From: Alphaproteobacteria bacterium
Lineage (GTDB): Bacteria > Pseudomonadota > Alphaproteobacteria > CAAHEQ01 > UBA3637
DNA length: 64,000 nt
Assembly: GCA_045605805.1 (NCBI GenBank)
Contig: JAZUQR010000027.1
Location: 169,944-233,943 of the forward strand
Direction of reading: 5' to 3'
Below the pieces are notes generated by a model. It had not been told where the DNA came from. It did not search any database and was given only the letters and a program-made list of their open reading frames with translations. Each line of letters opens with the position of its first letter. The first letter of the stretch is position 1. Below, one piece after another: positions 18,865-25,996 of the stretch. Made by a program: the position numbers and the translations under genes.

Positions 18865-18900
18865 TAAAAGAAAAACAACCTATGTATTTCAATAGGTTAT
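18865..18900 (-). terminator. Putative original tRNA-Ser terminator, now distal to the cassettes
   Basis: Minus strand: CCGCCA-ctttcaaa-ATAACCTAT-tgaaatac-ATAGGTTGT-TTTTCTTTT, directly after the last core copy. Confidence 0.55.
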
Positions 18901-18908
18901 TTTGAAAG

Positions 18909-18936
18909 TGGCGGGCAATGCTGTGCATAATGGGAA
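18909..18936. repeat. 28-bp direct repeat B, copy 1 (core + short arm)
   Basis: TGGCGGGCAATGCTGTGCATAATGGGAA, identical to 19770-19797. Confidence 0.95.
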
Positions 18937-18937
18937 C

Positions 18938-19539
18938 TCATTTAATTGTCTGATTTTTCGTATTCTCAATATTTTTATTTACTTTATAGATATAGTATGT
19001 ATCATATTTGGAACCTAAGGAAAACTCCTTTTTTGGTTCCATATCTGGAATTGGAAACCGATTGACATAAAGAAGGGTACTTTTTTTTGCTTCTGTTTGA
19101 CATTTAGTGCTGATTTTTTTCATTAAGTGGGATAATAAAAATAAAAATATAATATCAGCTTTGGATATATCTGCGTTAAAGAAATTTTGACGATAAAACT
19201 CGATATTTTTCATTTTTCTGGCTCTAAATCTACTAACTAAATAGGGAACCACCCATATTCAATTCCAATAAACTTGTGCTGTGGAAATTGTTGCGCCAAG
19301 GGTAAAAGTAAGGTACCCCAACCGCTTCCCAAATCCATTATGGTTTGATTTTTTCTTTTCTCTAAAAGTTGAGCAACATTTTTTAACATAGCCCTTTTAA
19401 CTTTTCCACTTGATGGAACAGGTGGTGCATTGCGCATAAAACTGGAATTAAAAGCAAAATAGATGGTTATTATTCCCACACAGAATATAACTAACATTAA
19501 TAAAGTTTGCAATAACACCAACAAATAAATAAGAACCAT
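18938..19539 (-). pseudogene. Membrane-anchored class I SAM-dependent methyltransferase, frameshifted
   Basis: Two overlapping ORFs join into PPVPS...MDLGSGWG...GIE...NFFNADISKADIIFLFL. One base is missing near 19244-19246 (TTC CCT ATT TAG versus TTC CCN TAT TTA). Confidence 0.75.
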
Positions 19540-19580
19540 ATATCCTTATCCTTCCGTGTTAATTTATAAAATTTTTTACT

Positions 19581-19775
19581 AAAATGTTCGAATGTCGGTA
19601 AGGGTTCCAAACAGCGTTAAAAATGTGAAATGTAATAAATTCAAGCGCTTACTGCGTTATCGGTTCGATTGTTGAAAAAGTATGTGCTTTTTGACCAAAC
19701 AACATTTGAACCAGCTTAACATATTGAAAACAAAAGAAAAAGTCGCTATTTTAAGCGACTTGTTCACTTTGGCGG
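19581..19775. repeat. ~195-bp imperfect direct repeat A, copy 1 (long arm)
   Basis: Aligns end to end with 21820-22015 (roughly 80% identity by eye), from AAAATGTTCGA to CGACTTGTTCACTTTGGCGG. Confidence 0.95.
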
Positions 19776-19797
19776 GCAATGCTGTGCATAATGGGAA
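19770..19797. repeat. 28-bp direct repeat B, copy 2
   Basis: Identical to 18909-18936; similarity continues as gggaa[c/g]tcat[t/c]ta. Confidence 0.95.
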
Positions 19798-19834
19798 GTC
19801 ATCTAGAGCATTTTGATACATAAAAGGTCTTAAC

Positions 19835-21748
19835 TCAACCTCCTGCCTGTGGGGTATTTTGTCCTTTTAAAATAGAAAGAGGAGGTTGTTTTTTATTTGA
19901 AAGCGATCTTTTATCAGCACTTTTGGAAAGCATTTGTATTAAACCGGATTTACCTGTATTATTCCCAGACTTCTTATGCGACTTAACGGAAGAAGTTAAA
20001 GGACTGTTTTCTGGAAATCTATCAATATTCTCCTGACTGATAATCGGCTTCCCATATTTGTCCTTTAATGACATAAGGATAGGTAATTGTTCAGCATAAT
20101 CTGAATGTGCCTGAATAAGACTTTCTAACAATATATTCTTTCCTTCTTTTGTATCAAAAGTCTTACGGGAAAGTGGTAGATTTCCTTTTTCATCTTTAAT
20201 TGCATCAAATAATAATTTAATTTCTTCCTTGCAATTTTTTCCTCTACTTATGTCTCGCACCCAAATATCCAATGCTTTAGCAAATTGTTCCTCTCTAACA
20301 AGTACCTTTCCATCACGACCTGTTAATTTTAGTATTTGAGGAAGTAATGGAAGCATTTTAATCCAGTCCTCATCGTAAGGACCGAAATGTCCCAAAAACA
20401 CATTCCTCGTGTTATCAAAAGAGGCTCGTAAATCTTTTTCTATAAGGGGTAGACGTCCTTCATCATCTGAAAGAATAGCAACAGACTTTTTAAAATCTTC
20501 TGGAATCTTTGTTTTAAAAGACAATATATTCGCAATATTTTCTGAAGTCGCTATTTTTTCACCATCACGAGTAGCCTCAACTAGGTACTTTAATGCAGCG
20601 GGACTAATAATTTGCTGAATACCACAACCTTTAAAAAGATCTCTAACTTTTTCTATATTAAATACATATTGAGAATCAGTTCTTTTCAATGTCAATATAT
20701 CGTGAATCTGTGCTGGTGAAGCATTTTCCAATATGTATCCTAAAACCTCTTCATAATCCTTGGGCATTTTTTCATCAACACCATCATGTAAAAGACGTAT
20801 ATATTCATCCAGATGGTTATTCTTTTTGGCTTGCAATAACTTTCCTCGAAAACGTCTAGCTCTTCTAGGGGCTTCTTGTAATTTTTTCATCAAACTTTGT
20901 GGTAAGTGAAATACCTCTGGAATACAATCTAAACCTGGATCATTTTCCCCAATTGGAGCTCTCATATCATATAAATCTTTATAAGGACTACCATATACTC
21001 TATCTAATATGGCACTTATCGCCTCTTCTTCAATTTTTTTATCACCTCTATGGCTCACATCATTTGCGTGTTTTTTTAATATTTCTTCATACGTTTTAAC
21101 CCCAGTCATTTTAGTATCATCTGTATGACCAAAAATTTCATAATAAGCTCGCGCACCGGTTTCAAATGCTTGTGCTTCTGATAAAAATTCAAGCTGATGC
21201 CAAGCATAGGCATTTTCTATTGGAATTCCAAAAAACGAAGCATTCATCATACGTTCTTCCTGATGATAGGCAGCCTCATCATTTTGTTCTGCGTGTTTGA
21301 GTTCATGTGATAATACTAAAACTAAAAAATTAAGATCATCCACCTTTTCAAAAACAACCTTATTGTCCATCGGTCCATATGAAGCCGCAGATTTTGCCTC
21401 CTTATCTCCGTTATTTCTTTCTCTGACTATTGTAGTGTCAATTATGAGAGGGTTCGTATCTTGACGAAAGGTTGAAAATTTATGATACAAAGGTGTTTCC
21501 TTACCATTCAGTTCATAAATCAATTTTAAAGCCTGTTGAACCTTTTGTTCTCTTTCGCTTAAATTTAATTTTGGATTATTCGGGTAATCTTCTGGATATA
21601 TAAACTCACGAATAGAGCATGTTTTTATTTTGCTTTTTAACTCTTTTGCTCTTTCTTCATCTATAAAACTATGTTCAAGAAGATATTGCTCCTCTTCTGT
21701 CAATAAAACCCCATATGACACTTTTATCATATCCATTGAATTTTCCAT
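19835..21748 (-). CDS. Hypothetical protein with HExxH zincin-like domain and C-terminal degenerate repeats
   Basis: LSHELKHAEQ followed by EAQA; AAAGGAG SD; 637-aa open frame. Confidence 0.75.
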   Translation of the reverse strand: MENSMDMIKVSYGVLLTEEEQYLLEHSFIDEERAKELKSKIKTCSIREFIYPEDYPNNPKLNLSEREQKVQQALKLIYELNGKETPLYHKFSTFRQDTNPLIIDTTIVRERNNGDKEAKSAASYGPMDNKVVFEKVDDLNFLVLVLSHELKHAEQNDEAAYHQEERMMNASFFGIPIENAYAWHQLEFLSEAQAFETGARAYYEIFGHTDDTKMTGVKTYEEILKKHANDVSHRGDKKIEEEAISAILDRVYGSPYKDLYDMRAPIGENDPGLDCIPEVFHLPQSLMKKLQEAPRRARRFRGKLLQAKKNNHLDEYIRLLHDGVDEKMPKDYEEVLGYILENASPAQIHDILTLKRTDSQYVFNIEKVRDLFKGCGIQQIISPAALKYLVEATRDGEKIATSENIANILSFKTKIPEDFKKSVAILSDDEGRLPLIEKDLRASFDNTRNVFLGHFGPYDEDWIKMLPLLPQILKLTGRDGKVLVREEQFAKALDIWVRDISRGKNCKEEIKLLFDAIKDEKGNLPLSRKTFDTKEGKNILLESLIQAHSDYAEQLPILMSLKDKYGKPIISQENIDRFPENSPLTSSVKSHKKSGNNTGKSGLIQMLSKSADKRSLSNKKQPPLSILKGQNTPQAGG

Positions 21749-21819
21749 AATGTTCTCCTTTTTTTATCACACTAACATATTTTAATGTGATTTACAACAC
21801 AAATGGTGTAATCACTCAA

Positions 21820-22015
21820 AAAATGTTCGAGTGTCAGTAAGGGTTTCAAACAGTGTCAAAAATGCGAAATGCTTTAAAATCAATCGCTTACTGAGTTATC
21901 GGTTCGATTGTTGAACAAAGTATGCCTATTTTTCCTGCTTAACAATCGAACCGCCTTAAACCATTGAAAATAAAAGAAAAAGTCGTCATTTCTGACGACT
22001 TGTTCACTTTGGCGG
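21820..22015. repeat. ~196-bp imperfect direct repeat A, copy 2 (long arm abutting tRNA 3' end)
   Basis: See copy 1. Contains a perfect 13-bp inverted repeat 21900-21912/21941-21953 and a terminator hairpin 21981-22000. Confidence 0.95.
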
Positions 22016-22098
22016 AGCGTACAGGATTTGAACCTGTGCATCCCTTTAACAGGATGACGGATTAGCAATCCGCTGCATTACCACTCTGCCAACGCTCC
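22010..22098 (-). tRNA. tRNA-Ser(GCT)
   Basis: GGAGCGTTGGCAGAGTGGTAATGCAGCGGATTGCTAATCCG...long variable arm...GGTTCAAATCCTGTACGCTCCGCCA. Confidence 0.97.
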
Positions 22099-24781: not shown

Positions 24782-25996
24782 TTAGACAGAACGCCCTTTG
24801 GATTTTACCTTATTATCCAACACAACAATTTTGTTGTCTTTGGTCACATGATAGGTGGGCAAACGGCAACAATCCGGCACAGGGATTTCAATAAAGACAT
24901 TTTTGCCCATAAAAGAGAGTAAATTAAACTTTTCTTGAATGGGATCCAGATATTCTTCATGTAAAGCCGTATGTTGCTTATAGGGTAAAAAGACAATGTT
25001 ATTGATATCATTATTACCCCCAAAAGCAAGAGGAATCACATGATGGGCGGTTAAATCTTGTTGGGTGTCAGTTGTATCAGAATGAAAAAATAAATTAAAA
25101 TCACCCCGCAAACCACAAGCCTGCAAAAACTGCAAACGGTTCTGGTTAAAATCATATCGGCGTATTTTTTTTTCGGCCCCCGATACAAAATCAGCCTTTA
25201 CAATTTGCATACTCATATTTTCTGGAACAACCGGTTTTTTATGCAAACTCAATAAAATCCCTTTTTTGAATTGTTGGCTGATAACCTTATTGCCCAATTT
25301 TGAACGCCAATTTGCTTTATTTTGAAAAACTTTTTCATAAGCAGCTCTATCAGTAGCCGGTACAAAATCCAAAAAAGCCTCGTTTGTAAAAACACAAGGA
25401 AGGGACGGCATATAAAAACCCAGTTTATGTGTAAAATCTTTTTCTTGTAAAAACTTGTCCTTACAATTTTTAATCACAGACCAATAAGTTTCATCCATAA
25501 TTTCGGCCACATCAGACGAAACCACATACATATTAGAAGTATCCAAAGTACCACCTAATTCCAAAGGAATGCGAAAATCAACCATATAATTTTTGGGTAA
25601 ATGACCTGTTTTTAACGCAATAGCCTTGTCTTTTTCCGAAAAAATACCATCAAAACAATGTCGTGTGGCCAAGCGTCGCACAAAAAGATTAGCCTGTTTT
25701 TTGAATTGTTGAATATGAAACTTTTTAACAGAAGTTTCTTTTTCCCCAACAACTGTTTCCGTTAAATAAACAGTCTGGGGATTTTCCTTAAAATACTTAT
25801 TATCTTGGCAAACAAAATGAAGCATCAGATTCTTAAACTTATCAGTTGTCTTGCGAATTTGGGTATCTTTCACCCAAGTGGACATTTTTTTTTGAATTTC
25901 AGATTTTGCCTTATTCTTGGAAAAAACAACTAATTCCATAACATTTTCATTGTTTTTTTTATGCCGAAAATCGCCTTTTTTTTTATAATTTTTCAT
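24782..25996 (-). CDS. HNH-family nuclease-like protein with tandem-duplicated domain
   Basis: HHVIPLAFGGNNDINNIVFLPYKQHTALH plus a degenerate copy DFRIPLELGGTLDTSNMYVV. Confidence 0.7.
   Translation of the reverse strand: MKNYKKKGDFRHKKNNENVMELVVFSKNKAKSEIQKKMSTWVKDTQIRKTTDKFKNLMLHFVCQDNKYFKENPQTVYLTETVVGEKETSVKKFHIQQFKKQANLFVRRLATRHCFDGIFSEKDKAIALKTGHLPKNYMVDFRIPLELGGTLDTSNMYVVSSDVAEIMDETYWSVIKNCKDKFLQEKDFTHKLGFYMPSLPCVFTNEAFLDFVPATDRAAYEKVFQNKANWRSKLGNKVISQQFKKGILLSLHKKPVVPENMSMQIVKADFVSGAEKKIRRYDFNQNRLQFLQACGLRGDFNLFFHSDTTDTQQDLTAHHVIPLAFGGNNDINNIVFLPYKQHTALHEEYLDPIQEKFNLLSFMGKNVFIEIPVPDCCRLPTYHVTKDNKIVVLDNKVKSKGRSV

Follow-up and report, generated by a model that had tools for sequence, protein, structure and literature searches.

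In an uncultured gut bacterium, a tRNA-Ser(GCT) gene is followed on the minus strand by two tandem gene-bearing units, which lie within the 64,000 nucleotides analysed here (the window). Each unit runs from a left arm (arm A) through its cargo to a right arm (arm B), and the tRNA-terminal core CCGCCA, found as TGGCGG at 22010, 19770 and 18909, divides the array into units of 2240 and 861 bp (Table 1). This anatomy agrees with an earlier sequence-only reading of the locus, as does the tight packing of the genes, whose stop codons lie 37 nt (unit 1) and 1 nt (unit 2) from arm B and whose starts lie about 70 and 41 nt from arm A. The genes are AT-rich, as had been noted, with a GC content of 0.31-0.36 across the units versus mostly 0.42-0.49 in nearby housekeeping genes. 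The two arm A copies have diverged as described (80.6% over 196 nt, by alignment). The reported identity of arm B holds for the last 28 nt, core included, and gives way to 34/36 overall, the distal motif of unit 1 departing from the family pattern.

Table 1. Features of the array at tRNA-Ser(GCT), in window coordinates
Feature	Position	Strand	Remark
tRNA-Ser(GCT), target (attB) gene	22010..22098	-	ARAGORN; Rfam RF00005
T-loop GGTTCAAAT, proposed attB zinc-ribbon (ZD) motif	22026..22034	-	role inferred from the geometry in the available part of PMC3783163
Core 1, CCGCCA (attL)	22010..22015	-	placed by how far unit ends match the anchoring tRNA
Arm A1, left end of unit 1	21820..22009	-	
Arm A1, terminator hairpin	about 22001-21977	-	
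Arm A1, IHF-like sites	21969-21957, 21890-21878	-	
Arm A1, inverted GGTTCGATTG pair	about 21952-21943 and 21910-21901	-	
Arm A1, third TCGAAC motif	about 21830-21825	-	
Cargo 1, 637-aa protein, putative metallopeptidase	19835..21748	-	HExxH motif (HELKH)
Arm B1, right end of unit 1 (attP half-site)	19776..19802	-	distal motif degenerate
Core 2, CCGCCA, armB-core-armA junction	19770..19775	-	
Arm A2, left end of unit 2	19581..19769	-	
Arm A2, IHF-like sites	19729-19717 and 19651-19639	-	
Cargo 2, class I SAM-methyltransferase-like gene	18938..19539	-	frameshifted near 19245 in this assembly
Arm B2, right end of unit 2	18915..18941	-	AGTTCC motif starts 30 nt before the CCA end
Core 3, CCGCCA (attR of the array)	18909..18914	-	
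Terminator beyond the array	18865..18908	-	

Cargo 1 has a weak match to DUF6782 (E 5.6e-4, below the cut-off), and DUF6782 clusters head its Atlas list with scores <0.9. The gene of unit 2, previously called a methyltransferase, is methyltransferase-like, with every Pfam match below the cut-off, and is broken in this assembly into two frames, one of 100 aa at 19539-19237 and the other at 19252-18938. Contigs from two of four runs (X3 and X10) have one inserted base at this point compared with the window, and the break therefore reflects either a strain difference or a mistake of assembly. In one contig of run X10 the methyltransferase unit has other neighbours.

In agreement with the earlier reading, which saw no integrase or transposase in the window, searches there for PF00589 (tyrosine recombinase), PF00239 (resolvase), PF07508 (Recombinase) and, among transposases, IS200 and IS110 gave no match. 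The last two were also not found in the whole assembly (G000), of which another region holds one reverse transcriptase. Arm A was considered as a structured RNA and rejected as such, given that only its terminator and one inverted pair fold and that no Rfam family besides tRNA was matched. In genome G005 the 31 nt behind tRNA-Ser are 87% similar to the terminator beyond the array, and a similar hairpin precedes 630-aa tyrosine integrases at tRNA-Pro; the terminator either belongs natively to the tRNA or is what remains of the left end of a different type of element. The G005 locus itself is ambiguous as an empty site, having the same terminator and a different downstream gene.

A cassette family at tRNA ends

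The two units are members of an order-wide cassette system. Arm A matches were found in 68 of 80 family genomes, and 60 bounded units were catalogued (median 1.2 kb, interquartile range 876-1398 bp), which bears out the expectation of a family of miniature recombinase-less cassettes, variable in number and content at tRNA-Ser. The system is not specific to tRNA-Ser, since units also stand at the ends of Gln, Lys, Pro, Met, Leu, Thr-like and Glu tRNAs. Nor do single, co-oriented genes hold as a family rule: one ORF of at least 100 aa occurs in 51 of the 60 units, and among 72 cassette ORFs of this size 43 run with the tRNA and 29 are opposed to it. The cargo comprises GNAT, NUDIX, methyltransferase, hydrolase and unknown types, none of 66 cargo proteins has a recombinase domain, and the unit ends are conserved. 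The arm motifs at the two ends of a unit are always matched (16 and 44 units of the two kinds, 0 mixed of 60), a count that is confounded by tRNA class.

Cassettes also recur whole. Over its full length, a 794-bp cassette is 95% identical between two genera, where its left neighbours differ, and copies of a 1223-bp cassette are 98% identical. The same cargo occurs at tRNA-Ser(TGA) in this genome and at tRNA-Ser(CGA) in G014, with 85-86% identity. Recurrence with identical ends, in other genera and array positions, points to mobility as cassettes, and movement in trans would fit it. A sequence-pattern scan returned 21 loci on 16 contigs, all titled Alphaproteobacteria MAGs, and none in viral contigs; a shorter pattern returned 70 metagenome loci, 8 of them true arm B. 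Scans of viral sequences for arm A junctions gave 0, 0, 2 (chance matches) and 0, and there was no real match to arm A in phage and plasmid collections. Among the joints listed for the four runs there was neither a circle nor a clean empty site. A joint from 22015 to 18921 in run X3 is an armB-core-armA junction with another arm B allele, and it is not evidence of a circle because arrays also contain such junctions.

Large serine recombinase elements in relatives

The enzyme for ends of the window type is likely to be a large serine recombinase (LSR). As the earlier reading had predicted, relatives hold autonomous elements that share these ends and encode a recombinase: one in G091, split over two contigs, and its tRNA-Gln equivalent in G041, which is contiguous. 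In G091, tRNA-Ser(GCT) is followed by a window-type arm A and then by about 14 kb that contains no further CCGCCA, after which the contig breaks off within the LSR gene, with residues 1-132 encoded. Residues 196-540 are found on another contig, where the gene stops about 85 nt short of a Ser-type arm B. The two halves are 100% and 99.1% identical to one 540-aa protein, P0088, 63 codons being missing between them. The left end of this element is 76% identical to arm A1 over 169 nt, and its right end matches arms B1 and B2 at 23/33 and 24/33 positions. Such a Ser-type autonomous element was found in only 1 of 80 genomes. In G041, a contiguous 11.7-kb element at tRNA-Gln begins with a cassette-type arm A, encodes a 531-aa LSR and ends in arm B, and recombinase-less cassettes follow it. 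The LSR elements at four other loci (L381, L383, L385 and L388) likewise end in arm B, and each of the 5 Gln-type LSR starts seen has the arm motif AGTCCGTGT immediately ahead of its start codon. Pfam Resolvase, Recombinase and Zn_ribbon_recom domains were present on 4/4 LSRs tested; P0088 shares 46% of its residues with the Gln LSR, and it also matches chains of the A118 serine integrase. These domains, together with these ends, occur in relatives and not in the window.

LSR 3′ stubs lie directly behind tRNA-Gln at L420, L421 and L427, with varied lengths in the arrays. As some cassettes keep such stubs, the cassettes are deletion derivatives of 10-15 kb LSR elements. The two units of the window contain no LSR stub, and this assembly has no full-length cognate LSR, only an 82-codon stub at a tRNA-Leu(CAA) array; given that no full-length member of the clade was found in it, the window's units may now be inert. 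No LSR relative was confirmed in viral contigs.

Site geometry and a proposed mechanism

The T-loop GGTTCAAAT starts 25 nt before the CCA end of tRNA-Ser(GCT), and an RGTYCR motif starts at -25 in 49/50 CCA-ending tRNAs of this genome. Of 34 junctions chosen solely by their arm A, 26 have the motif starting at -30 in arm B; in the left half-site it thus stands 5 bp further out than the T-loop. The available part of PMC3783163 describes a ZD motif of serine integrases that is shifted by 5 bp between attP and attB. By this analogy, the -25/-30 motif would be bound by the LSR zinc-ribbon domain, and the crossover would lie near the start of CCGCCA, probably at the first two bases of core 1. Unit ends are identical to the anchoring tRNA at -6 in 34/35 cases, at -7 in 19/35 and at -8 in 11/35, and the block of identity measures 6-8 nt in 30/35 units. 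A mirrored ZD motif in the right half-site was sought in 28 natural junctions, where the best dyad fractions were weak (0.43 at centre -11, 0.39 at -1). IHF-consensus sites are enriched in arm A at +41 (56/132 arms, shuffled mean 5.3) and +120 (55/132, shuffled mean 8.0), in arms that are related and hence non-independent.

We propose, with a probability of roughly 0.8, that the units are miniature non-autonomous derivatives of LSR elements that integrate at tRNA 3′ ends, stacked and mobilised by a cognate LSR. The parent would be a 10-15 kb element, with its LSR gene near the right end and pointing at arm B, and with a variable cargo slot between the two. A deletion that starts at arm A and extends through the LSR gene would leave arm A, cargo and arm B. 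The LSR would take the tRNA T-loop as attB zinc-ribbon motif and arm B, carrying the T-loop motif 5 bp further out, as attP half-site. With crossover falling around bases 6 and 5 counted from the CCA end, only 6-8 bp would be duplicated, and arm A would restore the tRNA end and bring a terminator. Repeated integration would stack the units, and where a cognate LSR element is present, cassettes would be excised and re-integrated at the same tRNA or at another tRNA-Ser isoacceptor. We infer that the LSR catalyses these steps in trans, through circles, and that some route carries cassettes between cells.

A wider proposal is tentative, and we give it somewhat less than even weight: an order-wide serine-integrase analogue of the integron, with an LSR radiation, the T-loop as host motif and the acceptor stem as address. 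Full elements, themselves transient, would act in trans on a lasting pool of ~1-kb cassettes, which would pass from genus to genus and from one tRNA locus to another, and the additional motif copies and IHF-like sites of arm A would make up an accessory architecture that sets direction. Direction-controlling architecture of this kind is unusual for serine integrases.

Alternative explanations and related systems

IHF-like sites and an arm of 190 bp would be more usual for a tyrosine integrase, and they were counted against the LSR model. A lambda- or P4-like tyrosine integrase with arm-type sites and IHF, or XerC/D, might act on the ends with the LSR as a passenger; besides the IHF-consensus enrichment, HU/IHF genes are present, and 8 of 23 family genomes searched have just two tyrosine recombinases, read as XerC/D. 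Against this, none of 40 non-Xer tyrosine-recombinase neighbourhoods in the genus, and none of 15 in the family, has its own ends with these arms; they have other repeats along with, where read, 17-19-bp T-loop duplications. The candidates considered, a 530-630-aa family, P4-like integrases (found in 10/80 genomes) and 200-aa recombinases, all have other ends, a pattern search for a dif-like dyad found none, and it is the LSR gene that adjoins arm B and has the arm motif upstream of its start. We regard a tyrosine or Xer enzyme as very improbable. Local duplication or chance repeats with no mobile system, suggested by the near-identity of the two arm B copies, has next to no probability and is refuted: the cargo is unrelated between units, other genomes and other tRNAs have dozens of homologous units, and the unit ends are shared by autonomous elements.

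Decay in place, as in classical CIMEs, is unlikely. Each unit would be the fixed relic of a full LSR element that lost its backbone, never moving alone and shared through homologous recombination or a ride in cis on an adjacent full element. The LSR stubs of varied length, the absence of a full cognate LSR from this assembly and the window's frameshifted cargo and degenerate arm B motif agree with it, and the available part of PMC5704250 describes a three-step route of this kind. However, equal-length cassettes with identical ends occur in different genera and array positions, one cargo sits at two tRNA-Ser isoacceptors, unit size is uniformly small, and the arm motifs are still conserved and matched (with the confounding named above). 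The sequence-only reading would have been contradicted by arms that are eroded ends of integrase islands; the stubs speak for such an origin, whereas whole recurrence across genera speaks for cassettes.

Tandem accretion in which some members lack a recombinase is already known in principle, and the system is a new form of it, not an integron. The available parts of PMC5704250 describe CIMEs, in ICE-IME accretion, as decayed passengers moved in cis. Loss of recombinase and transfer genes, retention of attL/attR and stacking at the tRNA end are shared, and deletion from an autonomous element is visible in the LSR 3′ stubs of Gln-type cassettes. In contrast, the minimal units here are numerous, uniform in size and recurrent as wholes across genera, often in genomes that lack a full element, and no full element stands beside the window's array. 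The Dehalococcoides ssrA islands, as far as the available part of PMC3146451 shows, likewise depend on a large serine recombinase (DsiB, CcrB-like), stack in tandem behind one tRNA-like gene, often lack the integration module (15 reported) and have a conserved motif just upstream of the repeat, unlike the target gene. Their single target (tmRNA), 20-bp repeat and T-loop crossover have no counterpart here; instead, at least 8 tRNA classes are used, each with its own ends and LSR subtypes, the repeat is 6-8 bp, the crossover probably lies in the acceptor stem, the units are ~1 kb and the left arm is structured and 190 bp long. With A118/LI phage integrases, in the part of PMC3783163 available, the LSRs share the domain set, the A118 chain match and the 5-bp shift of the distal motif; they differ in having the universal tRNA T-loop as host motif, no mirrored right half-site motif found, and, 40-190 bp into the element, additional copies of the motif together with IHF-like sites. 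Additive flexible islands and tycheposon islands, in the available parts of PMC4898812, PMC10872708 and 10.1101/2020.12.28.424599, are also tRNA-anchored stacks with tRNA 3′ repeats and cross-species sharing; their repeats are about 20-40 nt, their units larger and their recombinases, where named, mostly tyrosine enzymes, and conserved two-arm cassette ends are not described there.

tRNA islands of tyrosine integrases carry their own tyrosine integrase with the same ends, a pairing that was not found here. Integrons hold arrays of mostly single-gene recombinase-less cassettes, with IntI and attI beside the array and with co-oriented cassettes that have one attC hairpin each. The tRNA-Ser site works like an integron made from different parts: the arrays are alike, whereas no IntI or attI lies beside this one, the likely enzyme is of the serine and not the tyrosine type, each cassette has two unlike ends, and many genes are reversed. 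Staphylococcal cassette chromosomes use one protein-gene target and paired CcrAB or CcrC, span tens of kb and include ccr-less forms; large serine recombinases, composite stacks and recombinase-less members are common to both systems.

One cassette design serves many tRNAs across a whole order, and would explain how small-genome gut Alphaproteobacteria manage accessory-gene turnover without recourse to integrons. Scoring of 7999 candidates gave an LSR radiation of 971 proteins at E <= 1e-40, for part of which, at most, tRNA targeting is established. If the order-wide reading is true, this family would be a natural set of tRNA-addressed integrases, and if the T-loop is the attB motif, the radiation would be a source of integrases addressed to conserved tRNA ends. 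P0088, arm B with arm A and the tRNA-Ser end make up a directly testable enzyme-site set.

Anatomy and cargo of the tRNA-Ser array

The cassette array at tRNA-Ser is real. The tRNA call, the positions of the three cores (Table) and the arm alignments bear out the anatomy given by the sequence-only reading, with paired arms around each cargo: the two copies of arm A, the end next to the tRNA, share 80.6% identity across 196 nt, and those of arm B, the right end, 94% across 36 nt. Both of the genes it described are present, but the methyltransferase gene is broken by a frameshift in the window assembly, where contigs from two of the four sequencing runs compared differ from the window by one base. 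An HExxH motif is present in the 637-aa gene, whose sole match, to DUF6782, is sub-threshold. In line with the claim that the window lacks an integrase or transposase, none of the five recombinase/transposase families searched has a match in it.

A unit detector, run on 145 loci preselected for arm or integrase hits, yielded 135 arm A starts and 66 closed units; 60 of these bear the arm B motif, which is built into the detector. These 60 units measure 593-5844 bp (median 1182). The proposal of a single gene co-oriented with the tRNA stood in part: 51 of the 60 contain one ORF of at least 100 aa, but 29 ORFs oppose the tRNA versus 43 that run with it. Pfam was searched with 66 of the 70 listed cargo proteins, three near-duplicates and one doubtful ORF being left out. 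Matches at E ≤ 1e-5 were obtained for 28 of the 66, with GNAT, NUDIX, methyltransferase, hydrolase, periplasmic binding protein and glycosyltransferase families found and no recombinase among these 28. For each of the two window cargo genes there are also homologues around which no arms were detected, and some of these homologues adjoin other tRNAs.

Three arrays (loci L293, L294 and L325) have successive cassettes bearing paralogous periplasmic binding proteins. A longer array at tRNA-Gln(TTG) in G000, the genome of the window, combines the cores CCAACCA, CCAGCCA, CTAGCCA and CCCGCCA with genes in both directions. Also in G000, a reverse transcriptase adjoins a gene that resembles the tRNA-Ser(TGA) cassette cargo and shares its N-terminal motif; this gene and the cargo possibly belong to a family of diversity-generating retroelement target genes.

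Coordinates of features in the window and on other contigs (C-numbers) of G000
Feature	Sequence	Position	Strand
tRNA-Ser(GCT)	window	22098-22010	minus
CCGCCA cores	window	22010, 19770, 18909	
404-aa HNH-like ORF	window	24782-25996	
tRNA-Gln(TTG) array	C10	67685-73400	
Reverse transcriptase locus	C8	50822-51871	
530-630-aa tyrosine integrase	C21	76146-77927	
530-630-aa tyrosine integrase	C7	57525-59279	
~170-nt non-coding unit	C25	3470-3640	
~170-nt non-coding unit	C10	72470-72640	

Distribution and variation of the cassettes

Judged by their sequences, arms A and B define a family. Further arm A-type starts were found in G000 at tRNA-Ser(TGA), Gln(TTG), Gln(CTG), Leu(CAA), Met, Thr and a Lys-like end. 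An arm A model matched 68 of 80 family genomes, which are also the order-level set, and 19 of 20 congeners; in 16 genomes of other families the search matched the tRNA part only (4) or nothing. The arm B pattern retrieved 16 contigs from the all-species collection, every one titled as an Alphaproteobacteria MAG and many from rumen or gut. Among 20 relative loci fetched, 17 contain tRNA-Ser(GCT), whole or partial, and in nine of these arm A follows immediately after the tRNA; cargo and unit number differ, which is the variation that the sequence-only reading had predicted. The others lack arm A, and one is a tyrosine-integrase element.

Small units appear to travel whole: one of 794 bp is shared by genomes G093 and G041, of two genera, at 95% identity over its full length and with different neighbours on the left; another, of 1223 bp, shows 98% identity between G021 and G073; and one cargo lies at tRNA-Ser(TGA) in G000 and at tRNA-Ser(CGA) in G014. 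On a contig from sequencing run X10, the methyltransferase unit, with 13 differences over 675 nt, stands behind an arm A resembling that of the 637-aa unit; a further arm A start comes next, and then ~1.25 kb of unrelated DNA up to alaS. A contig from run X1 has an armB-core-armA stub, then 584 other letters and alaS. A clean empty site, also predicted, is plausible: in G005 the tRNA is joined to a terminator 87% similar to that of the window, but the next gene differs, and none of the joints listed from the runs compared links the tRNA to 18908.

Large serine recombinases and the proposed mechanism

We consider the units to be miniature cassettes cognate to a large serine recombinase (LSR), with a probability of roughly 0.8. 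The LSR family PF07508 matches 45 of the 80 family genomes. An autonomous copy with the same ends had been anticipated, and G041 has one in a contiguous 11.7-kb element: tRNA-Gln, cassette-type arm A, restriction-modification-like genes, a 531-aa LSR, a 905-aa gene and arm B, beyond which come a 177-nt unit and three cassettes that lack a recombinase. Arm B also terminates LSR elements in G021, G061, G086 and G064, where the genes between LSR and arm B vary or are absent. For the Ser type, one G091 contig carries tRNA-Ser(GCT), an arm A with 76% identity to that of the window over 169 nt, ~14 kb in which no core recurs and, at the contig end, LSR residues 1-132; a second carries residues 196-540, which stop ~85 nt short of an arm B of Ser type that agrees with that of the window at 24 of 33 positions. 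The halves match the 540-aa LSR P0088 at 100% and 99.1%, and the two contigs probably represent one element. In G000 no full-length member of this LSR clade was found, only a 3' stub in the tRNA-Leu(CAA) array. That the cassettes form an order-wide pool, actively mobilised in trans, we propose tentatively, at slightly under even odds.

A tyrosine integrase was set aside as the cognate enzyme, the 40 genus and 15 family tyrosine-recombinase neighbourhoods having other ends. Matches to the IHF consensus occur in arm A at +41 in 56 of 132 arms and at +120 in 55 of 132 (shuffles, 5 and 8).

Counted from the CCA end, the T-loop motif RGTYCR begins at -25 in 49 of the 50 tRNAs that end in CCA, and a related RGYYC begins at -30, in arm B, in 26 of 34 junctions chosen by arm A alone. 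Identity between unit end and anchoring tRNA holds in 34 of 35 cases at -6, 19 at -7 and 11 at -8. Both the offset and this boundary agree with a crossover near -6/-5; such a position would explain the 6-bp core that had surprised the sequence-only reading. PMC3783163 places a 9-bp zinc-ribbon motif at attP positions 16-24, and 5 bp further inward in attB. The arm A side of the junctions yielded no mirror image of the motif, which counts against full symmetry. In all 5 Gln-type LSR starts seen, a copy of the arm motif lies immediately upstream, and the two ends of a unit carry the same motif type in 60 of 60 cases, an agreement confounded by tRNA class; together these suggest that the LSR may bind internal copies as well. 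Cassettes would form by deletion of the element backbone with retention of the cargo slot, given that LSR 3' stubs lie directly behind tRNA-Gln in three genomes; the two units of the window contain no such stub.

Known systems and other elements

Among described cases the closest is the stack of ssrA islands in Dehalococcoides, which has DsiB and includes islands lacking the integration module (PMC3146451); the general route is that of CIME formation and accretion (PMC5704250). Additive islands and tycheposon islands are laid out like the array. The array resembles an integron in how it would work, but does not qualify as one. No publication on this tRNA-end cassette system was found in the literature searched, which omits most subscription papers.

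LSR subtypes at tRNA-Leu(CAA), Lys(CTT) and Glu(TTC) (loci L367, L368, L377, L380, L394 and L372) sit tRNA-proximal, their 3' ends reaching up to or into the tRNA, a layout opposite to that of the Ser, Gln and fMet types. Two prophage-like G000 contigs with serine integrases (C12 and C16) have genes that look unlike those of the host, giving an impression of possible binning contamination. A radiation of 530-630-aa tyrosine integrases, seen in G000 and in about 30 relatives, occupies many tRNAs and forms another system that targets tRNAs in these hosts; the ends contain triple direct repeats (TGTAACAC, GGGACAC or TGTGATRCA).

The ~170-nt non-coding unit, also present at loci L382 and L385, holds a tRNA 3'-half copy whose T-loop is interrupted by a ~70-nt strongly folded insert; whole-unit fold energies are -63 and -67 kcal/mol, as raw values without shuffle control. 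Similar sequence begins after tRNA-Pro(TGG) on C21 and tRNA-Met on C30, and the unit appears to be a miniature element of its own that inserts in T-loops. The window also contains, in the interval from thrS to a response regulator gene, an AT-rich ORF of 404 aa in which two stretches resemble HNH, with the Pfam HNH match above the cut-off.
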